Shown: positions 39,251 through 49,716, counted from the first letter of the stretch. The stretch: 64,000 nt of DNA from Phycisphaerae bacterium (GCA_018335035.1 JAGXKT010000007.1:10110-74109), one strand, 5' to 3'. The notes: a model not told the origin generated them from the letters alone. Program-made: numbers and translations.

Positions 39251-40672
39251 TCAGTCCTCACCGCCGACGGTCGCCGTGAGCGTTTCGCGCGGCGGCGAAT
39301 GCAGCGCGCGGCTGAAGGAGTCCTCCGCCGCTTCCTTCAGGCACTCGCTGATCGTCGGGTGGGCGATGGTCATGTTCGCCAGGTCCTCGGCCGAGGCGCG
39401 GGTGCCGATCAGCGCCGCGGCCGCGTGAATGACCTCCGTCGCGTTGTGCCCGAGCACGTGGACACCGACGAGCCGTCCGTCGTCGCGGGCGCGGAGGACC
39501 TTGCAGAAGCCCTCGTCGTGTGCGACGGCTTTGGCCTTGCCCAGGTTCCGCAGCGGAAACGTGCCGACGGAAATCGCCAGCCCCTGCTGCCGCGCCTCCG
39601 TGGTCGTCAGCCCGACCGAGGCGATTTCGGGGAACGTATATTCCCCCGTAGGGACGGGCTTGTCGTCTAGGCGGTCGCCGCCCAGGGCGTTCTCCGCCGC
39701 GACGATCCCCTGCGCGCTGGCCGCGTGGGCGAGCTGCCACCGCCCGTTCGCGTCGCCGATGCAGTAGACGCCGTCGGCCGAGGTCTCCATGCGGTCGTTG
39801 ACCGGAATCACGCCGCGGTCCGTCTCGATACCGACGGTTTCGAGGCCCAGGTCGGCGGTGTTGGGCTTGCGCCCGACCGCGACAAGGCATTTGTCGGCCT
39901 CGACGGTCTGCCCGTTGGACAGGTCGGCCGCGATGCCGCCGTCGCGGGCGGTCATCCGCTCGACCTTCGTTCCGGTCAGGCAGGTGATGTCGCGCTTGGC
40001 GAAGATGTCGCCCATCGCGTCGCCGAGTTGGTCCTCCAGCACGGGCATCAACCGCGGGAGCATCTCGACGACGGTGACCGCCACGCCGTAGGCGTTCATC
40101 ATGCAGGCGAACTCGCAGCCGATGACTCCGCCGCCGACGATCAGCAGCCGCTGCGGCGGGGCGTCCCAGAACAGCGCCTCCTGGCTGGTGCAGACGAGGT
40201 TCGGATCATCCGGCCAGCCGGGGATGCGGACCGGCACCGAGCCGGTGGCGAGGATGATCTTCCCGGCGGTGATTTCCTGCGTGCCGTCCTCGGTTTCGAC
40301 GGCGACGGTCCCGCCGCCCGCAAGCCGGCCGCGACCTTCGTACAGCGTCACGCCGCGGCTTTTGAAGAGCATGCCCACGCCGCCCCGGAGCGTACGGACG
40401 GTCTTGGTCAGGTGCTTCTGAATCTTCTTCCAGTCGAACCGCGGCTCGCCGTCGACGGTCACGCCGAGTGCGCCGCCGGTGCGAATGGCGTGCAGCAACT
40501 GCGCCGGCGCCAGCAGCGCCTTGGACGGAATGCACCCGACGTTGAGGCACGTGCCGCCGAGGTGGCCCATCTCGACGACGGCGACGTTCGCGCCCTTCTG
40601 CGCCGCGTGCAGCGCGGCGATGTACCCGCCGGGTCCGGAACCGATTACAACGATGTCGTGTTTCTTGCTCAT
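39251..40672 (-). CDS. lpdA: Dihydrolipoyl dehydrogenase (E3)
   Basis: 473 aa. FAD motif VVIGSGPGGY, redox-active GGTCLNVGCIPSK, NAD motif IVGGGVIGCEF and the C-terminal HAHPT-like AHPTISE. Confidence 0.95.
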   Translation of the reverse strand: MSKKHDIVVIGSGPGGYIAALHAAQKGANVAVVEMGHLGGTCLNVGCIPSKALLAPAQLLHAIRTGGALGVTVDGEPRFDWKKIQKHLTKTVRTLRGGVGMLFKSRGVTLYEGRGRLAGGGTVAVETEDGTQEITAGKIILATGSVPVRIPGWPDDPNLVCTSQEALFWDAPPQRLLIVGGGVIGCEFACMMNAYGVAVTVVEMLPRLMPVLEDQLGDAMGDIFAKRDITCLTGTKVERMTARDGGIAADLSNGQTVEADKCLVAVGRKPNTADLGLETVGIETDRGVIPVNDRMETSADGVYCIGDANGRWQLAHAASAQGIVAAENALGGDRLDDKPVPTGEYTFPEIASVGLTTTEARQQGLAISVGTFPLRNLGKAKAVAHDEGFCKVLRARDDGRLVGVHVLGHNATEVIHAAAALIGTRASAEDLANMTIAHPTISECLKEAAEDSFSRALHSPPRETLTATVGGED

Positions 40673-40825: not shown

Positions 40826-40853
40826 TCCGAACTTCGAACTTCGAACTCCGACC
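40826..40853. repeat. Four tandem 7-nt units T(T/C)CGA(A/C)C immediately 3' of the E2 stop
   Basis: tccgaac ttcgaac ttcgaac tccgacc. Coordinates are anchored on the E2 stop codon (complement of 40853-40855) and are accurate to about 1 nt. Confidence 0.6.
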
Positions 40854-42850
40854 TAGTCTGTCAGTTCATCCGGCGCTTCGAGCAATTCCTTGATCCGCGC
40901 GAGGGTCTGTGCGGCCGCGACGCCGTCGACGATGCGATGATCGCAACTGAGCGTCAGGCCCATGACGCGCCCCGGGCGGATCGTCCCGTCGCGGACGACC
41001 GCGTCCTCGCGCAGCGCTCCGACGGCCAGGATCGCCGACTCCGGCGGGTTGATGATCGCGCCGAAGGTCTCGACGCCGAACATGCCGAGGTTGGTGACCG
41101 TCATCAGCCCATCGCCGACGCCTTCGAGCTTGCCGCCGCGTGCCGCCTCGACGACGCGTCGCGTCTCGCCGGCCAGTTGCTCTAAGCTCATCGTATCGGC
41201 CGAGCGGACCACCGGCACCAAAAGCCCCTCGTCCGTGCCGACGGCAATGCCGATATTCGCCGACGGATACTCGACCAGGGCGTCGCCCTCAAGTCGGCTG
41301 CGCAACTGGGGAAACTCCTGCATACATCGCACGGCCGCGCGGACGACGAAGTCATTGATCGTGCATTTGAACGCGCCGTCCGCCTTGATTTGCATATACG
41401 CCGCATACAGCGCGTCGGCGTCTACCGTGATCGTGGCGTAGAAGTGGGGGATCGTCTGCTTGCTCTTGAGCAGGGCGCCGCCGATTGCCTTGCGCATCTT
41501 GGTCAACTCGTGGCGGACGGGTTCGCCGCCCGCGACGGTCGTGCCGCTCGCGGCGGCCGCGGCGACGTCGTCGGTGACGATCCGCCCGCCGGGCCCGCTT
41601 CCGGTCCCCACGGACGCGAGGTCCACGCCGCGCTCGCGCGCCAGATTCCGCGCCGCCGGTGACGCCTTGACGCGTCCCCCGGCCGTCGTCTGCGCCGGTT
41701 GACCGCGCCTCGCGGTGGGCTTCGGCGCCGCGTGCGGCTGCGTCGCCGGGGCGGCAGGGGGCGCCTCGGGCTTGTGGGCTTCGAGATACGCCGCCACGGC
41801 CGCGTCGTCATCGGCGAGATAGGCCACGGGCTGCTTGACGGGAATCACGTCCCCTTCGGCCGCGACGATCTTCGCCAGGCGTCCGGCGTCGGTGGCTTCG
41901 ACCTCGACGGTCGCCTTGTCCGTCTCGACGTCAAAGATGATCTGCCCGGTGGTGATTGTGTCGCCCTCGGCGACGCGCCAAGCAACGATCGTGCCTTCCT
42001 CCATCGTGTTGCCCACTTGTGGCATCAGCACGGGCGTGACGTCGCCCGCGTCCGGCTCGCTCGCCCCCCCGGCGTCCGTCTGCGGCCCGGCGGGCGCGTC
42101 CTGCGCAGGTTCGGCGCCTTGCGCCTGCAGATACGCCGCCACGTCCGCATCGTCGTCGGCGAGATAGGCCACGGGCTGCTTGACGGGGATCAGGTCGCCC
42201 TCGGCCGCGACGATCTTCGCGAGGCGTCCGGCATCGGTCGCTTCGACCTCGACGGTCGCCTTGTCCGTCTCGACGTCAAAGATGATCTGCCCGGCGGCTA
42301 CCGTGTCGCCCTCGGCGACGCGCCAGGCGACGATCGTGCCTTCTTCCATCGTGTTGCCCACCTGGGGCATCAGCACGGGCGTGACGTTGGCGGCGTTGCC
42401 GCCCGACGCGTCGGCAGGCGAACCGCCGGAGGGGGGCGTTGCGTCGCTCGCCGGCTGCGAGGTCTGCTTCGGCGGATCGGCCTTGTCTTCGACGTTGGCC
42501 GCCTGCGGCTCTGCTGCCTCCGCGCCGGCGGGCGTGTCCGTCTTCGGCGCCGCCGGCGGGGTATTGCCGGCCAGTTCGTCGCGCAGCGCGGCGACGGCGT
42601 CGTCGATGTCGTCCTTTGCGCCGGCCACCACGGCCAGCGGTGCGCCGACCGGCAGGGCGGTGCCCTCAGGCGCGAGGATCGCGCGGAGCACACCCTTGCA
42701 GCCGGCCTGGAGGGTCACCTCGGCGTCGGCGGCGCGGAGCTCGGCGATCTGTTGGCTCTTCTCGAGCTTGTCGCCTTCCGCGACGTGCCACGTTTCGACG
42801 GTGACCTCGGTCATCGTCTTGTTGGCCTGGGGGACTCGCAGCGTATTCAT
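40853..42850 (-). CDS. Dihydrolipoamide acyltransferase (E2) with one degenerate and two canonical lipoyl domains
   Basis: Internal ATG 42850 (MNTLRVPQANKTMTEVTVETWHV..). Two lipoyl domains carry ETDKATVEVEA. Also has an E3-binding domain (ASPAARNLARERGVDL) and a catalytic domain with DHRIVDG. Confidence 0.92.
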   Translation of the reverse strand: MNTLRVPQANKTMTEVTVETWHVAEGDKLEKSQQIAELRAADAEVTLQAGCKGVLRAILAPEGTALPVGAPLAVVAGAKDDIDDAVAALRDELAGNTPPAAPKTDTPAGAEAAEPQAANVEDKADPPKQTSQPASDATPPSGGSPADASGGNAANVTPVLMPQVGNTMEEGTIVAWRVAEGDTVAAGQIIFDVETDKATVEVEATDAGRLAKIVAAEGDLIPVKQPVAYLADDDADVAAYLQAQGAEPAQDAPAGPQTDAGGASEPDAGDVTPVLMPQVGNTMEEGTIVAWRVAEGDTITTGQIIFDVETDKATVEVEATDAGRLAKIVAAEGDVIPVKQPVAYLADDDAAVAAYLEAHKPEAPPAAPATQPHAAPKPTARRGQPAQTTAGGRVKASPAARNLARERGVDLASVGTGSGPGGRIVTDDVAAAAASGTTVAGGEPVRHELTKMRKAIGGALLKSKQTIPHFYATITVDADALYAAYMQIKADGAFKCTINDFVVRAAVRCMQEFPQLRSRLEGDALVEYPSANIGIAVGTDEGLLVPVVRSADTMSLEQLAGETRRVVEAARGGKLEGVGDGLMTVTNLGMFGVETFGAIINPPESAILAVGALREDAVVRDGTIRPGRVMGLTLSCDHRIVDGVAAAQTLARIKELLEAPDELTD
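41777..42385. repeat. Intragenic near-identical direct repeat (two copies of about 264 nt, period 345 nt) encoding lipoyl domains 2 and 3
   Basis: Both copies start VTPVLMPQVGNTMEEGTIVAWRVAEGDT.. (codons ending at 42385 and 42040). Protein-level differences are limited to a few residues (TVAAG/TITTG, DLIP/DVIP). Confidence 0.85.
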
Positions 42851-43171: not shown

Positions 43172-43987
43172 ATGACCCCCCAAGCCCGACAGCGACGTGA
43201 GGCGATCCTTGCGCACGTACAGGAACGTGGGCATGCGACCGTTCGCGCCCTCGCCGAGGAATGCGGGGTCTCGGCGGCGACAATTCGCCGCGATTTGCGC
43301 GCCCTGGCCGAGGAGGGCTTGCTGGAGGTCACCCACGGCGGCGCGCGAATCCGCCGGTCGACGGATTACTCGTTCTACTCGAAGAATCTGCGCAACCCGG
43401 AGGCGAAGGAGACCATCGCGCGTCTGGCGGCCGGGTGCGTCGCCGATGGCGACCAGGTATTCCTGGGCTCGGGCACCACGAGCTATCGTCTCGGCGCGCG
43501 GCTCAAGGGGCGGCGTGACGTGTCGGTGATCGTCAACTCGGTGCGCGTTGCCGGCGAGTTGGACGCCCCGGGCGTGTCGGTGCTGATGCTCGGCGGGCAG
43601 TATCGTTGTGGGCGGATGGACATGGTCGGACCGCTGGCGCTGACGGCGATGGAGCAGTTTCGCGGCTACATCGCGTTCGTCGGCACCGACGGGCTGGGGC
43701 GCGACTTCGGCGTCACGGCCAGCGACGTGGAAAGCGCGCACCTGTATCGTCAGGCGGTCAAGAACGCGCGTGAGTCCATCGTCATCGCCGACAGCAGCAA
43801 GTTTGCCGCGCCGTCGCTGTATCGCATTGTCGAGTGGGACGCGATCAGCCGGGTCGTCACCGATCAGGAGCCCGACGCGCAGTGGCGGGAGATCTTCCAG
43901 CGGCATGACATCGAGGTCATTTGTCCGGAAACGGTATCAGGCGAGGGAGCCAGCGGGCGGCAGGAGGAGGCAGGCGTATCAACATGA
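43172..43987 (+). CDS. DeoR family transcriptional regulator
   Basis: Internal ATG gives MTPQARQRREAILAHVQERGHATVRALAEECGVSAATIRRDLRALAEEGLL (wHTH). It has a C-terminal DeoR-C sugar-phosphate-binding-like domain. Confidence 0.9.
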   Translation: MTPQARQRREAILAHVQERGHATVRALAEECGVSAATIRRDLRALAEEGLLEVTHGGARIRRSTDYSFYSKNLRNPEAKETIARLAAGCVADGDQVFLGSGTTSYRLGARLKGRRDVSVIVNSVRVAGELDAPGVSVLMLGGQYRCGRMDMVGPLALTAMEQFRGYIAFVGTDGLGRDFGVTASDVESAHLYRQAVKNARESIVIADSSKFAAPSLYRIVEWDAISRVVTDQEPDAQWREIFQRHDIEVICPETVSGEGASGRQEEAGVST

Positions 43988-44031
43988 CCTGACGGGAGGC
44001 GGCGGACGGCGCCTCCAACAGAGCGACAACG

Positions 44032-44445
44032 ATGAGCTTTCGAGAACTGCGACGGGCCGTAAGGGACAGCGTGGAGCGAATCCTCCGCGTGATTGACGGC
44101 ACCGGTTGCCGGTTCACCTCGAACGCTCGGCGCGAAATTGGACGCCAGATCCGGAGGTACGTCATGGGCGCGATCCGCGAGAGTCAGAAGCAAGGCCGCG
44201 ACGGGGTCGTGACCGTCGACGACGTGCAGTACGCCCTGATGGGCATGCAGCGCGGAACAAGACGCCGCCGCAGCTTGCTGTGGACGCTGGTCGGCCAGGT
44301 CGGCAGCGCGCTGCTGGCCGTGGCGGTGACGTGTACCGTGACGATGTTGACAACGAGCTATTTTAGAGCTGCGCACGCGGCGCTGTCCGTGGCGATGGGC
44401 GTTGTGGGCGTGGCGATGATTGCCATCAGTTGGAGCAGGAGCTAA
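44032..44445 (+). CDS. Hypothetical membrane protein with an N-terminal histone-fold-like domain, a basic linker and two C-terminal TM helices
   Basis: 137 aa. RFTSNARREIGRQIRRYVMGAIRESQKQGRDGVVTVDDVQYALMGM aligns by eye with archaeal HMf-type histones (RVSDDAR..alpha2..GRKTIKAEDIELA). RRRR is followed by LLWTLVGQVGSALLAVAVTCTV and LSVAMGVVGVAMIAISW. The stop lies 3 nt before the E1 start. Confidence 0.45.
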   Translation: MSFRELRRAVRDSVERILRVIDGTGCRFTSNARREIGRQIRRYVMGAIRESQKQGRDGVVTVDDVQYALMGMQRGTRRRRSLLWTLVGQVGSALLAVAVTCTVTMLTTSYFRAAHAALSVAMGVVGVAMIAISWSRS

Positions 44446-44448
44446 CCG

Positions 44449-46920
44449 ATGCCGAAGTCGCAGACGATCGTTCCGGAAGAGGTTCGCAAGCCGAGCGAGA
44501 TCACGTTCAAGCCGATTCCGGTCAACCAGTACGACCGCCCGCTGTCCGACGAGCTCGAGCGCCACGGCGCTGAGGCCCTCGTCCGCATGCAGCGGGACAT
44601 GCTGGTCATCCGCACGTTCGAGACCATGCTCAACGAGATCAAGCTCCGCGGGGCCTACGCGGGCATCGAGTACGTCCACAAGGGCCCGGCTCACCTGTCG
44701 ATCGGGCAGGAGGCCGCCGCCGTCGGGCAGGCCTTTCACCTCGGCGTCGAGGATCACATCTTCGGCAGCCACCGCAGCCACGGCGAAATCCTCGCCAAGG
44801 GGCTCTCGGCCATCGAGAAGCTCGACGAGGAGGCGCTGCGCGGCCTCATGGAAAGCTACTTCGAGGGGGCGACGCTGCGGATCGTCGAGCCGGACGCCGA
44901 CGGGTCGATCAAGGACCTGGCGATGGACTTCCTGCTGTACGGTGCCCTGGCGGAAATCTTCGGCCGGGAGCCGGGTTTCAACAAGGGCCTCGGCGGGTCG
45001 ATGCACGCGTTCTTCCCGCCGTTCGGCGTTTTTCCAAATAACGCCATCGTCGGCGGCTCGGGTGACATCTCCGTCGGCGCGGCGCTATTCAAGCAGGTCA
45101 ATCACAAGCCCGGCATCGTCATCGGCAACATCGGCGACGCCTCCAGCTCCTGCGGGCCGGTGTGGGAGGGCATCTGCCTGGCCGCGATGGACCAGTATAA
45201 GAAGCTCTGGGACGATGAGCACGGCGGCGGGCTGCCGCTGATTCTCAATTTCGTCAACAACTTCTACGGCATGGGCGGACAGCCCTGCGGCGAGACGATG
45301 GGTTTCGGCGTCCTCGCCCGCCTCGGCGCCGGCATCAACCCGGAGCAGATGCACGCCGAGCGCGTCGACGGGTACAACCCGCTGGCCGTCGCCGACGCCA
45401 TCGAACGCAAGAAGCAGACCATCGCCGAAGGCGGCGGGCCGATCCTGCTGGACACGATCACCTACCGTTACAGCGGTCATTCGCCGTCGGACGCCTCGGC
45501 CTACCGCGAGAAGGACGAGATCGACGCCTGGCAGCAACACGACCCGACCCGCGCGTTCGCCGACGCGCTGGTCGAGGCCGGGGCGTGCTCGGCCGGCGAC
45601 ATCGAGCAGATGACCGCCGAGGCCGAGGCACTGGTCGCCAAGGCGCTGAAAAAGGCGGCCGATGCGTCTGTCTCGCCGCGCGCGGCGTTGAAGTCCGCCG
45701 GCTGTCTGATCGAGCAGGTGATGTATTCCGACGAGCAGGTCGAGTCGTTCGATCCGCAGCGCGAGCCCGAGGTGCTGATGCCGAAGGAAGACAACCCGCG
45801 CCTCAAGATGCTGGCCAAGCGCAGCCGGGGCGGCTATGACGCTGACGGGCAACCGTTGAAGAAAACCCAGTGCATCGGAATCCGCGACGCGCTGTTCGAA
45901 GCGATCCTCGACCGCTTCTACGAGGATTCCACGCTGGTGGCCTACGGCGAGGAGAACCGCGACTGGGGCGGGGCGTTTGCCGTCTATCGCGGGCTGACCG
46001 AGGCGCTGCCGTATCATCGGCTGTTCAACGCGCCGATCGCCGAGGGCGCGATCGCCGGATCGGCGGTCGGATACGCCCTGGAGGGCGGCCGGGCGCTGGT
46101 CGAGCTGATGTACTGCGACTTCCTCGGCCGGGCGGGCGACGAAGTGTTCAACCAGATGAGCAAGTGGCAGTCGATGTCCGGCGGGCTGTTGAAGATGCCC
46201 GTAACGCTGCGTGTGTCCGTCGGCAACAAGTACGGCGCCCAGCACAGCCAGGATTGGACGTCACTGTGCGCCCACGTTCCGGGGCTGAAGGTGGCCTTCC
46301 CCGCCACGCCCTACGACGCCAAGGGGCTGATGTACGCCTCGCTTCTGGGGACCGACCCGGTGGTGTTCTTCGAGAGCCAGCGGATTTACGACCAGCCGGA
46401 GCTGTTTGTCGACGGCGGCGTGCCCGAAGGCCGCTATACCGTGGACTTCGGGGAGCCGGCGCGGCGCACCGAAGGGGCGGACCTGACCATCCTGACCGTC
46501 GGCGCGACACTGTACCGCGCGCTGGATGCCGCGCAGCAGTTGCAGGAGATGTACGGCGTTTCCTGCGAGATATGGGACGCCCGCAGCATCGTCCCGTTCA
46601 ACTACGAACCGATTCTCGAGTCCGTCGCCAAGACGCACAAGATTCTGCTGGCTTCGGACGCCTGCGCGCGGGGCAGCTTCCTCCAGACGGCCGCGGCGAC
46701 GATCACGCAACTCGGCTTCGACGAGCTGGACGCCCCGCCCGTCGTGCTCGGCGCCCGCAACTGGATCACGCCCGCCGACGAGGTCGAAGACGCATTCTTC
46801 CCCTACCCCGGCGACTTCCTGGACACCGTCCACGAGCACCTCGTGCCGCTGGACGGCTACTCCGTGCAGCGCCCGTGCTCGCGCGACGAGCTGCTGCGGC
46901 GAAACCGACTGGGGATATAG
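44449..46920 (+). CDS. 2-oxoacid dehydrogenase E1 component, fused alpha-beta subunits (ThDP-dependent)
   Basis: 823 aa. The N-terminal half is E1-alpha-like ([15 protein letters not shown], ThDP motif [27 protein letters not shown]). The C-terminal half is E1-beta/transketolase-like ([29 protein letters not shown]). Confidence 0.9.
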
Positions 46921-47022: not shown

Positions 47023-47613
47023 CTACGACAGGATGCCGTGGTCGAGGCCGTGGACGAGGGCGGTCTTGACGCCGATCGCGATCAGGACGAGGCCGCCGAG
47101 GACCTCTGCCGTCCGTCCGAAGCGTCTGCCCAGGCGGCTGCCGAACTTGGTGCCCACGAAGCTCATGCCCCCGGCGACCAGCCCGATGATGAACGCCGGC
47201 AGCCAGATGGATACGCCCATGATGGCCATGCTCAGCCCGGCGGCCAGCGCATCGATGCTCGTAGCCAGGGCGAGGGTGAGCAACACCAGGCCGCGCGTGG
47301 GGTCGCACTGGTCCTCGGCCAGTTCGTTTTCCCTGCTTGTTGGGCGCAGGGCCTCGTAGACCATCTTCCCGCCGATGTAGCCCAGCAGGCCCAGCACGAG
47401 CCAGTGGTCGAATGCGGCGATGGCTCCGGCGACGGCCAGCCCGGCCAACCAGCCCACGATTGGCATGAGACACTGGAAGAGCCCGAAGTGCCACGCGATG
47501 CGGAAGACGTGCCGGCCGGTCACGTGCTCAACGGCTAGACCCGTCGCGATGGCGACGGCGAAGGCGTCCATCGCCAGGCCGAACGCGACCCCAACGATCT
47601 CGGCGAAGTTCAT
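47023..47613 (-). CDS. mntP: Manganese efflux pump MntP
   Basis: Internal ATG gives MNFAEIVGVAFGLAMDAFAVAIATG. A second DUF204 repeat shows ALATSIDALAAG. Six TM segments. Confidence 0.88.
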   Translation of the reverse strand: MNFAEIVGVAFGLAMDAFAVAIATGLAVEHVTGRHVFRIAWHFGLFQCLMPIVGWLAGLAVAGAIAAFDHWLVLGLLGYIGGKMVYEALRPTSRENELAEDQCDPTRGLVLLTLALATSIDALAAGLSMAIMGVSIWLPAFIIGLVAGGMSFVGTKFGSRLGRRFGRTAEVLGGLVLIAIGVKTALVHGLDHGILS

Positions 47614-47767: not shown

Positions 47768-48616
47768 TTACGCCCCGAGTGTGGCGATTCGGCGCGACGC
47801 GGCGACGGCACCGGCCGCGTCGAGCGGCTCGGTCGTGGCGAATTCCACGATCCGGCCGTTGGGATGCTCGCTCGTCAGCGTCACGCCGCGCTCGCCGATC
47901 GGCTCGATGCCGGAGGTCACGTGCAGGTGCCCGAAGAGGATGAGCTTGGCGCCGAGGGCGTCGGCGAGGGCTTCGATGCTTTCGGGTGTCTGCCCGCGGC
48001 CCCAGGTCCAGTTGTAGACTGCGCCGCCGCGTGCGAAGTCGACCGGGCGGTAAGGGCGTTGCAGCACGTCGGTGTCGGGTTCCTCGCCGGTTGAGATCTT
48101 CGGCAGCGAGTGGGTGATCCAGACGTCGTTGTCGCACCGGACGGCTAGGGGCAGCGAGCGAAGCAGCAGATGGACCGCGTCGAGCACGTCGCCGGCGTCG
48201 TCACCGAAGGCATGCCGCACCCCGGCTTCAAAGGCCGCGCACAGCCGCCCGCCGAACTTGACCAGCTCGTTGCCGGTGACCTGCGCGACATCGTGGTTGC
48301 CGAGGAGGCAGACGACCTGTTCCGGACGGGTGGCCAGGAGGCGCGCGGCGCGCAGCAGCGCGTCGATGCTGTTCTCCCGGCCGGTTCGGGGGTCGACTTT
48401 GCCGTGGAGGACTTCCTGCAGGATCAGGCGCCGGTCGGGTCGTGCGGCGAGATCGGCGTGGGCGAGGATCGCCGCGAGGTGCCGCAGGTTGCCGTGGATG
48501 TCGCCGGCGACGACGACGTTCAGTTTGCCGGTCAGGTGTACGACATTGCCCTCGCGCCGTGGGTCGTCGCGGCAGGCGCGGGCGGCGGCGCGGAATGTCT
48601 CGGCCGCGGCGTTCAC
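47768..48616 (-). CDS. PPP-family metallophosphoesterase (Ser/Thr phosphatase-like)
   Basis: Shows VVVAGDIHGN, LGNHD and ITHSLP. The proposed GTG start at 48616 overlaps the kinase TGA (GTGA). The track ORF start (48730) would overlap the kinase by 118 nt. Confidence 0.75.
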   Translation of the reverse strand: MNAAAETFRAAARACRDDPRREGNVVHLTGKLNVVVAGDIHGNLRHLAAILAHADLAARPDRRLILQEVLHGKVDPRTGRENSIDALLRAARLLATRPEQVVCLLGNHDVAQVTGNELVKFGGRLCAAFEAGVRHAFGDDAGDVLDAVHLLLRSLPLAVRCDNDVWITHSLPKISTGEEPDTDVLQRPYRPVDFARGGAVYNWTWGRGQTPESIEALADALGAKLILFGHLHVTSGIEPIGERGVTLTSEHPNGRIVEFATTEPLDAAGAVAASRRIATLGA

Positions 48617-49458
48617 GTGGCGGCGGCGCCGTTGCGGGCGTCGCGGCGGAGCTTGTGGCCGATCAGTCCGAGGCGCGAGGCGACGTCCTTCATGGAAGCG
48701 ATCCTCTGGGCCGGCTCGAAGGCGATGCAATCGTCGACAAGCTTGCTCAGCGCGTGCGGCACGTCGGGGTTGAGCTGGTCGGCCGGCGTGGCGGCGAGGT
48801 CGTCCTTGAACTGCAGGGCGCCGTCTTTGGGCAGCGTGGTGGGGATGGGCCTGCCGGTGAGCGTCCAGTACAGTGCGGCGCCGAAGTTGAACACGTCGGT
48901 GCGTCCGTCGAGCGGGCGGCGGGCGACCTGCTCAGGGGCGATGTAGTCGGGCGTGCCTTGGACGCGCTGCTTGACCGTGCCCAGCGAACAGCTCTGCCCG
49001 AAGTCGATGATCTTGGCCGTGCCGTCGGGCGCAACGAGGATGTTGTTGGGCTTGGTGTCCGCGTGAACGAAGCCGGCGGCGTTCATGTGCGCCAGCCCGG
49101 CGGCGACCTGCTCGAAGATCGCCACGACCGCCTCCACGCGCTCGGGGCGGTTGTCCTGAACGGTCAGCCCCGGGCAGAATTCCATAATCATGTGGACTTC
49201 GCGCAGGCGTAGCGAGCGGCGTATGCGACGCAGTTCATGGACGGCGCGCAAGTGGGGGTGCCCCAACCGACCGGCGATTTCGTACTCGTTCAGCGCCTGC
49301 GTGATGAACCGGTCATCGGCGTTGTGACGCTTGACGACGCGCTTGAGGGCGCGCAACTCGCCCGAATCGCGCTGACGAATCTTCCAGATGGTGCTGCGGG
49401 CGCCGCTACCGAGATACTCCAGTATCTCGTAACCACGCACTGCGAGCCGCTTTCCCAT
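48613..49458 (-). CDS. Hanks-type Ser/Thr protein kinase, catalytic domain only (non-RD)
   Basis: Internal ATG gives MGKRLAVRGYEILEYLGSGARSTIWK. Shows the ALK lysine, HADTKPNNILV (Ala replaces the RD arginine), DFG and TPDYIAPE. No TM or sensor domain. Confidence 0.88.
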   Translation of the reverse strand: MGKRLAVRGYEILEYLGSGARSTIWKIRQRDSGELRALKRVVKRHNADDRFITQALNEYEIAGRLGHPHLRAVHELRRIRRSLRLREVHMIMEFCPGLTVQDNRPERVEAVVAIFEQVAAGLAHMNAAGFVHADTKPNNILVAPDGTAKIIDFGQSCSLGTVKQRVQGTPDYIAPEQVARRPLDGRTDVFNFGAALYWTLTGRPIPTTLPKDGALQFKDDLAATPADQLNPDVPHALSKLVDDCIAFEPAQRIASMKDVASRLGLIGHKLRRDARNGAAAT

Positions 49459-49716
49459 GGTACCTCTCCGCCCGTTTGCGCCCGACACGGACCACAGCAT
49501 GGCGATTTCGCCGCATTTGGCAAGAACTAAGAGACTCTCAAGGTCTCGCATGGTCCGTCCATGCGAGCGATCGACGGCGCATCGCGTCACGAGTCGATCT
49601 CAGGCCGCCGTGATTAACGGTCGCGTCGGCCGCTATGCCGGTCTCCTCGTAATCTGTATCGGTCGGCGGGCGGCGGGGCTTCGGCTTGCCGGGGACGGCG
49701 CCCCCGTTACCCCGTC

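Follow-up and report, generated by a model that had tools for sequence, protein, structure and literature searches.

A candidate orphan gene for a small basic membrane protein in the deoR–E1 spacer of a Phycisphaerae 2-oxoacid dehydrogenase cluster

We examined a 64,000-nt stretch of DNA from a Phycisphaerae bacterium (GCA_018335035.1, JAGXKT010000007.1:10110-74109; hereafter the window, with positions counted from its first letter), centering on a small open reading frame (ORF) of 137 codons that is wedged between a gene for a DeoR-family repressor and one for a fused E1 dehydrogenase. On balance, we lean toward reading this ORF as a genuine gene, an orphan specific to its lineage, that encodes a small protein of the inner membrane and was inserted in the short deoR–E1 spacer of a 2-oxoacid dehydrogenase cluster. 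An initial annotation had read its product as a membrane-anchored protein with a histone-like fold, and the bearing of our results on that proposal is discussed below. The elements of the ORF are as follows:

44032-44445, plus strand: small ORF of 137 amino acids plus stop (ATG at 44032, TAA at 44443-44445), candidate orphan gene for a small membrane protein
44032-44256, plus strand: N-terminal domain (residues 1-75), predicted cytoplasmic, with helices at residues 3-23, 30-53 and 62-74 in the AlphaFold2 model of residues 1-78
44153-44166, plus strand: alternative internal start, with GGAGG at 44153-44157, a 6-nt spacer and ATG at 44164 (M45)
44260-44271, plus strand: RRRR (residues 77-80 of the translation), a positive-inside signal directly before the first transmembrane helix
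44275-44343, plus strand: predicted transmembrane helix 1 (residues 82-104; Kyte-Doolittle peak 1.78; AlphaFold helix 81-104)
44368-44430, plus strand: predicted transmembrane helix 2 (residues 113-133; Kyte-Doolittle peak 1.94; AlphaFold helix 108-134), after the short loop SYFRAAH

Coding potential of the small ORF

Judging from its sequence, the ORF is probably more than a chance open frame and looks like a real gene. Under a codon model derived from 17 long genes in the window, its frame has a positive score and ranks top of six in both the first part (44032-44163) and the remainder (44164-44445); the first part is low among true coding windows, at the 7th percentile, yet above all 2000 off-frame windows. 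The GC content at its three codon positions (0.60/0.52/0.80) follows the same pattern as in deoR and the E1 gene, and that of the insert as a whole (0.62-0.67) is typical of the genome. Proline is entirely absent from the 137 codons, whereas composition-preserving shuffles of the DNA yield a mean of 9.9 prolines and lack them with P = 5e-5; in this window, proline-free stretches of 137 amino acids were encountered in none of 1004 samples of real proteins and in 2 of 5322 samples of shadow frames. The predicted helices are also amphipathic: the hydrophobic moment of helix 1 (residues 3-23) is reached by none of 2000 shuffles (p < 0.0005) and that of helix 2 (residues 30-53) by 0.55% of them (p = 0.0055). 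In addition, the ORF occupies the gap between deoR and the E1 gene exactly. The three other contigs that bear the ORF match the window at 100% DNA identity, which renders a polymorphism test of selection uninformative.

Architecture and predicted topology

The RRRR linker and the two hydrophobic helices of the initial annotation are borne out by the translation, the hydropathy profile and the AlphaFold model: with a Kyte-Doolittle window of 19 residues, both hydrophobic peaks lie above 1.6, and each is matched by a modeled helix. Given the RRRR immediately before transmembrane helix 1, the very short loop between the helices and the short C-terminal tail, the positive-inside rule predicts an N-in/C-in hairpin. 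This topology would display a very basic domain on the cytoplasmic face of the membrane, residues 1-80 being Arg-rich, with a pI of 11.7 and 20 basic against 9 acidic residues (net charge +11). Our analysis supports the picture of a small protein with a helical cytoplasmic domain anchored by two transmembrane helices.

Packing between deoR and the E1 gene

The flanking genes and signals on the same strand are as follows:

43172-43987, plus strand: deoR-family repressor gene, 271 amino acids from ATG 43172 (Pfam HTH_DeoR, 2.7e-16; DeoRC, 1.7e-40)
43988-44031, plus strand: deoR–ORF spacer of 44 nt, with an in-frame TGA at 43990 (read from the sequence and a Shine-Dalgarno scan)
44437-44441, plus strand: AGGAG, Shine-Dalgarno motif of the E1 gene, 7 nt before ATG 44449 and inside the final codons of the ORF
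44449-46920, plus strand: fused E1 alpha/beta 2-oxoacid (acetoin/pyruvate-type) dehydrogenase, 823 amino acids (Pfam E1_dh, Transket_pyr and Transketolase_C)

Pfam domains identify both neighbors as the DeoR regulator and the fused E1 dehydrogenase that had been named for this locus, and the coordinates and gaps first given for the ORF (44 nt after deoR and 3 nt between its stop and the E1 ATG at 44449) are correct in the sequence. The longest ORF of deoR begins at a TTG (43121); we place the start at ATG 43172, which has an AGGA 8 nt on its 5′ side and agrees with the public gene call (908-1723 of locus L001, that is, 43172-43987 of the window). The E1 start is well supported, since homologs align with it over residues 1 to 823. 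No promoter- or terminator-like site was found between deoR, the small ORF and the E1 gene, and the Shine-Dalgarno motif of the latter lies inside the 3′ end of the ORF; hence, both co-transcription of the tightly packed genes, as originally suggested, and translational coupling fit the arrangement.

Taxonomic distribution and the deoR–E1 spacer

A word-indexed search of 5.8 billion proteins recovered the ORF product itself and nothing else, and an exhaustive phmmer search of 1.84 billion cluster representatives gave the soluble domain no match at E <= 1e-3. The sole two non-self matches in the latter are repeat proteins whose similarity is purely compositional and confined to the hydrophobic region. 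All copies of the ORF are identical, the three contigs that hold them come from a single set of sequencing runs, and there are no paralogs within the window. We further sampled 160 E1-bearing loci from other organisms (80 genomic and 80 metagenomic), in which the best identity of E1 is 75-78%; the closest relatives come for the most part from Planctomycetota (Planctomycetaceae, Pirellulales and Phycisphaerae), along with metagenome-assembled genomes (MAGs) of Sumerlaeota. Going by these E1 relatives, the present high-GC genome probably belongs to the Planctomycetota. A tblastn search of these 160 loci with the ORF returned no significant match, the best non-self hit having E = 0.86. Neither the protein searches nor the E1 loci, therefore, reveal conservation outside this genome. 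Searches bearing on a phage or defense origin returned nothing below E 0.07 in PHROGs, nothing in PADLOC and nothing significant with Foldseek against BFVD.

Where deoR precedes the E1 gene on the same strand in other organisms, the gap between them measures at most 63 nt in 49 of 64 loci. The abutting of the two genes in most relatives points to this being the ancestral state, with the present genome carrying a 461-nt insertion.

The spacer is also an insertion hot spot among the relatives, where the inserts have no relation to the present ORF. In two Sumerlaeota MAGs, it holds similar proteins of 120-129 amino acids that combine a CxxC…CxxC zinc-ribbon with hydrophobic helices (L014, 3574-3963; L019, 3573-3935), and in a further Sumerlaeota locus an 83-residue hydrophobic protein with a basic tail (L013, 190-441). 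Elsewhere, it contains a kinase-like gene (L006, 2933-3985), a TrpRS-like gene (L107 and L108, at about 1433-2437) or low-GC, non-coding inserts of 276-566 nt with GC content of 0.41-0.47 (the pairs L030/L104 and L101/L102).

As a separate observation, the DeoR protein of the window ends in a tail of about 18 residues (ETVSGEGASGRQEEAGVST; 43928-43987) that is extra relative to one complete C-terminus of a relative (L017, ending in …IIYPQ). Accordingly, the insertion that created the ORF may start within the old 3′ end of deoR.

The N-terminal domain and the histone fold

The original proposal of a histone fold was based on an alignment by eye to the archaeal HMf-type histones. Pfam searches with hmmscan at E <= 10, run with the full protein, residues 1-80 and residues 28-75, retrieved no histone family, including DUF1931; the only matches were to ATPase_2 (E 0.035 to 0.19, far below the cut-off) and DUF4337. 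NCBIfam likewise gave no histone, nor did phmmer against the PDB at E <= 10 give any histone chain. For direct comparisons, we gathered 120 HMf-type histones with HMfB as the query and built profiles from them. Against the 120-sequence profile, residues 1-80 score 3.2 bits in hmmsearch with the --max option, a value reached by 20 of 2000 shuffles; hhalign against 30 HMf-type histones gives a probability of 0.19% (P = 0.31), BLASTP against HMfB E = 1.8, and Smith-Waterman alignment to HMfB a score of 33 with a shuffle p of 0.07. Thus, none of the profile matches to histone-fold families, be it in Pfam, with the HMf profile or in hhalign, is significant.

What stands of the alignment by eye is its register, which is recovered by both HMMER and hhalign: RVIDGTGC-RFTSNAR is paired with RIIKNAGAERVSDDAR and GRDG-VVTVDDVQYA with GRK-TVKAEDIELA, with 4 residues missing from alpha2 and 1 extra in L2. 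This places R19, R27, A32-R33, G55-R56 and D63/D64 of the ORF product on R10, R19, A24-R25, G51-R52 and D59 of HMfB, respectively. Among the loop residues conserved in histones (the L1 Arg, RKT in L2 and an Arg-Asp pair to alpha3), the Lys and Thr of RKT (K53 and T54 of HMfB) have D57 and G58 in their place. The scores, on the other hand, are no better than chance, as illustrated by a negative control: the C-terminal domain of the neighboring DeoR, which has an unrelated alpha/beta fold, aligns to the ORF product with a Smith-Waterman score of 42 and a shuffle p of 0.07, the same level as HMfB, by pairing the motif GRDGVVTVDDVQYA with GRDFGVTASDVESA.

The DeoR–ORF similarity was also considered as a potential trace of the origin of the ORF by partial duplication of deoR. 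It is in frame and spans 45 residues with 33% identity, with 43697-43783 of deoR facing 44194-44280 of the ORF and, in the proteins, GRDFGVTASDVESAHLY of the DeoR C-terminal domain facing ORF residues 55-71 (GRDGVVTVDDVQYALMG), and the hint of a duplication came from a 30-nt seed together with this 45-residue alignment (GRDGVVTVDDV in one against GRDFGVTASDV in the other). We rejected this origin: the protein alignment is at the shuffle p of 0.07 given above, and the local score of the DNA is 23 against a null mean of 24. We treat the similarity as chance; the DNA holds no signal of a duplication.

In predicted structure, the likeness to histones is no more than suggestive. AlphaFold2, used without an alignment, models the full-length protein poorly (predicted local distance difference test, pLDDT, 53.7), whereas residues 1-78 alone give a pLDDT of 78.6 (83-91 over residues 1-50) and a predicted template-modeling (TM) score of 0.58. 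The three predicted helices, of 21, 24 and 13 amino acids, are joined by loops of 6 and 8 residues, compared to 6 and 7 in HMfB. The order of the elements and the loops fit a histone fold; the helix lengths do not, as the canonical alpha1, alpha2 and alpha3 have about 11, 27-29 and about 10 amino acids, respectively, which makes helix 1 about double the canonical length and helix 2 shorter than alpha2 by 4-5 residues. Read from the sequences, helix 2 bears a single hydrophobic stripe (8 of 24 residues hydrophobic, versus 13 of 29 in HMfB), a pattern that would suit a helical hairpin or a three-helix bundle no less than a handshake dimer.

In Foldseek searches of the PDB, about 40 of the top 50 matches of the model of residues 1-78, and 24 of 25 of those of the full-length model, are histone-fold chains, with NF-YB, H3, MHF1/CENP-S, TAF and the bacterial and Asgard histones HBb, HLp and HHoB at the top. 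The best E-value, however, is 0.72, with probabilities of at most 0.25, query-normalized TM-scores of 0.33-0.41 and root-mean-square deviations (rmsd) of 5-7 Å; the best target-normalized TM-score is 0.50, for HBb over 52 columns with an rmsd of 3.6 Å. We regarded matches with E < 1e-3 or a TM-score above 0.5 as significant, and no match passes either threshold. Moreover, since the histone matches share one fold, they carry the weight of a single fold-level match, and a score of this size would arise by chance about once per search. We would describe the N-terminal domain as a basic module of three helices, generic in kind but with helix-loop-helix spacing like that of histones; homology to histones is not established.

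Functional interpretation

The gene is packed for co-transcription with deoR and the E1 gene, and translational coupling to the latter is probable. Its predicted product comprises a very basic, proline-free, amphipathic three-helix domain of 75-80 residues, followed by RRRR and a two-helix hydrophobic hairpin. As its most plausible role, we propose that the basic domain would serve as a membrane-anchored adaptor, probably self-associating, whose binding partner is acidic: nucleic acid, for example, the head groups of acidic lipids, DeoR or a component of the dehydrogenase. As most relatives have no gene at this position, its role is likely to be accessory to the pathway rather than part of its core.

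Alternative interpretations

Several points count against the orphan membrane-protein gene as we have described it. The coding statistics of the N-terminal 44 codons are weaker, with a GC content at third codon positions (GC3) of 0.73 compared to 0.84 for the rest, and the N-terminal domain is 24% Arg, which is nearer to the out-of-frame translations of this window (19%) than to its real proteins (8.5%). No Shine-Dalgarno-like motif occurs 3-11 nt before ATG 44032, in contrast to M45, which has a perfect one in front of it. Further, Foldseek consistently puts histone folds first, such that the label “generic” may undersell a real remote relationship, and the proposed adaptor function is pure inference.

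The Shine-Dalgarno motifs raise the question of the start codon. Public gene calls on all three contigs, which are short and derive from related sequencing runs, report the same product (P0001) of 93 amino acids that starts at M45 (ATG 44164; residues 45-137). On this reading, the protein would be a short basic tail joined to a membrane hairpin of two helices, the 132 nt before it would serve as a leader that is not translated, and the greater part of the proposed histone fold would never be made. We consider this unlikely: the start at M45 is backed by these calls, by the GGAGG 6 nt before it with no counterpart before ATG 44032, and by the drop in codon score and GC3 in 44032-44163 relative to 44164-44445. 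Yet a Shine-Dalgarno motif is found at the likely start of only about half of the window’s genes, and this GGAGG is explicable as the Arg-Arg codon pair CGG AGG inside an Arg-rich helix. The codons that would be lost are in the top-ranking frame of six, above every one of the 2000 off-frame controls; they encode a helix 1 whose hydrophobic moment no shuffle exceeds, and the model has a pLDDT of 83-91 across residues 1-50. A start at M45 would also leave an untranslated gap of 176 nt, unusual against the deoR–E1 gaps of 10-60 nt in relatives. Hence, we favor the 137-residue product, with the short form as a live rival. A further alternative, in which the ORF is spurious, having stayed open by chance within non-coding DNA inserted in this lineage, appears improbable to us. 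It would account for the orphan status, for the Arg-richness reminiscent of shadow frames and for the fact that some relatives carry non-coding inserts at the very same site, and high-GC genomes do yield long chance ORFs. It sits poorly with the coding-frame statistics, the lack of proline (P = 5e-5), the amphipathic periodicity, the positive cluster with two well-formed hydrophobic helices behind it and the stop codon just 3 nt before the E1 ATG; the GC content of the insert likewise differs from the 0.41-0.47 of the relatives’ non-coding inserts, albeit in a comparison between different genomes.

A third possibility is that the product is a true membrane-tethered histone fold akin to the transmembrane histones discussed below, forming a handshake dimer on the cytoplasmic face and a four-helix bundle in the membrane, and perhaps, in view of its richness in Arg, binding DNA or RNA. 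The helix-loop-helix-loop-helix layout with its loop lengths close to those of HMfB, the independent choice of the by-eye register by HMMER and hhalign, the predominance of histone folds among the Foldseek matches (including HBb and HLp) and the very existence of a category of transmembrane histones all speak for it. We nonetheless judge it doubtful, as no score is significant in Pfam, PDB phmmer, hhalign or Foldseek and the alignment to DeoR, a negative control, scores equally well; in addition, helix 1 has 21 rather than about 11 residues, helix 2 has 24 rather than 28-29 and shows one hydrophobic stripe, nothing corresponds to K53 and T54, and the many histone matches amount to a single fold-level one. 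The most elaborate version of this proposal, in which all 137 residues are translated into a nucleic-acid-binding, membrane-tethered histone handshake dimer that arose or diverged too fast to have detectable relatives, we deem very improbable; were it true, such a tethered histone might hold the deoR/E1 locus, its mRNA or the DeoR repressor at the membrane.

Other features of the locus

The remaining components of the dehydrogenase lie upstream and are divergently transcribed:

39251-40672, minus strand: E3 dihydrolipoamide dehydrogenase (Pfam Pyr_redox_2 and Pyr_redox_dim)
40853-42850, minus strand: E2 acyltransferase with three lipoyl domains, start uncertain (Pfam 2-oxoacid_dh, three Biotin_lipoyl and E3_binding)

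Two of the three lipoyl domains of E2 are near-identical in DNA (91.9% over 123 nt; 41920-42042 and 42265-42387), an indication of recent duplication within the gene or of gene conversion. Downstream of the E1 gene, the opposite strand encodes an MntP manganese efflux pump (47023-47595), a calcineurin-like metallophosphoesterase (47768-48730) and a Ser/Thr-kinase-like ORF (48613-49590); the latter two overlap by about 118 nt as listed, and hence the phosphoesterase probably starts further in. An antisense ORF of 380 amino acids (43864-45006, minus strand), which is Arg/Pro-rich and covers the end of deoR, the entire small ORF and the start of the E1 gene, is read as a typical high-GC shadow ORF and not a gene, given its overlap with well-supported genes. 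A structured RNA or riboswitch in place of the small gene was also considered and rejected, Rfam returning only a meaningless microRNA match at E <= 1. Nor did any repeat or duplication turn up by which the insert could be accounted for as non-coding DNA.

Comparison with known systems

The N-terminal domain shows some likeness to the C-terminal lid of the AAA+ ATPases, in that an A-R-x-x-hydrophobic helix is followed by G-R-x-x-V-T-x-x-D-V-x-x-A-L. The helix-strand-helix motif of this lid is said to have been linked evolutionarily to the histone fold in a proposal of Alva et al. from 2007. RuvB appears at Foldseek ranks 23 and 43 (E 4.9, TM-score 0.28), weaker than the histone matches, with all of them insignificant; unlike the AAA+ ATPases, the 137-residue ORF product has no ATPase core.

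With the HMf-type, HBb and HLp histones (PF00808), the product shares the three-helix layout with similar loops, as well as the motifs R-[VF]-[ST]-x-x-A-R at the L1/alpha2 start and G-R…D-[VI]-x-x-A at L2/alpha3, and these proteins are its best-ranked PDB neighbors. It differs from them in its chance-level scores, a helix 1 longer by about 10 residues, the membrane anchor and its orphan status.

A membrane-tethered histone fold would be less unusual than the initial annotation held, since a category of “transmembrane histones” has already been defined in prokaryotes, with examples such as A0A1F9E2M1, A0A0Q0VIG5, A0A7X7ZL04 and A0A7Y5J1Q7, which are without the usual DNA-binding residues (Schwab et al. 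2024, Nat Commun 15:7950, PMC11390915). Like these, the ORF product is small, has an N-terminal helix-loop-helix-loop-helix followed by transmembrane helices and is modeled by AlphaFold with low confidence over the membrane part. However, the transmembrane histones were recruited as histone folds, with multiple sequence alignments of 150-170 sequences and confident models, whereas the ORF product has neither relatives nor a significant match; moreover, going by the descriptions, its extremely basic domain (residues 1-80) sets it apart from proteins said to lack DNA-binding residues. Lacking an established histone fold as well as sequence relatives, it cannot be filed among the transmembrane histones and is better placed with the orphan small membrane proteins, as one whose helices are spaced in a histone-like way. 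A true histone fold here would extend these uncharacterized proteins to a form able to bind nucleic acid, a step for which the present evidence falls short.

The closest parallels in genomic position are the ORFs in the deoR–E1 spacer of Sumerlaeota (L014/L019 and L013), which occupy the same slot, are of like size (83-137 amino acids, counting the present one), couple, to judge from their sequences, a small cytoplasmic module to a hydrophobic hairpin and have no annotated function. They differ in displaying other cytoplasmic modules and no sequence similarity to the ORF product, and together with it they appear to represent independent insertions and not one family. Thus, the deoR–E1 spacer repeatedly acquires small genes, and the ORF described here, if a real gene, would provide one more lineage-specific small membrane protein at a conserved junction between a regulator and an enzyme, while correcting the public annotation of a 93-residue product without a function.

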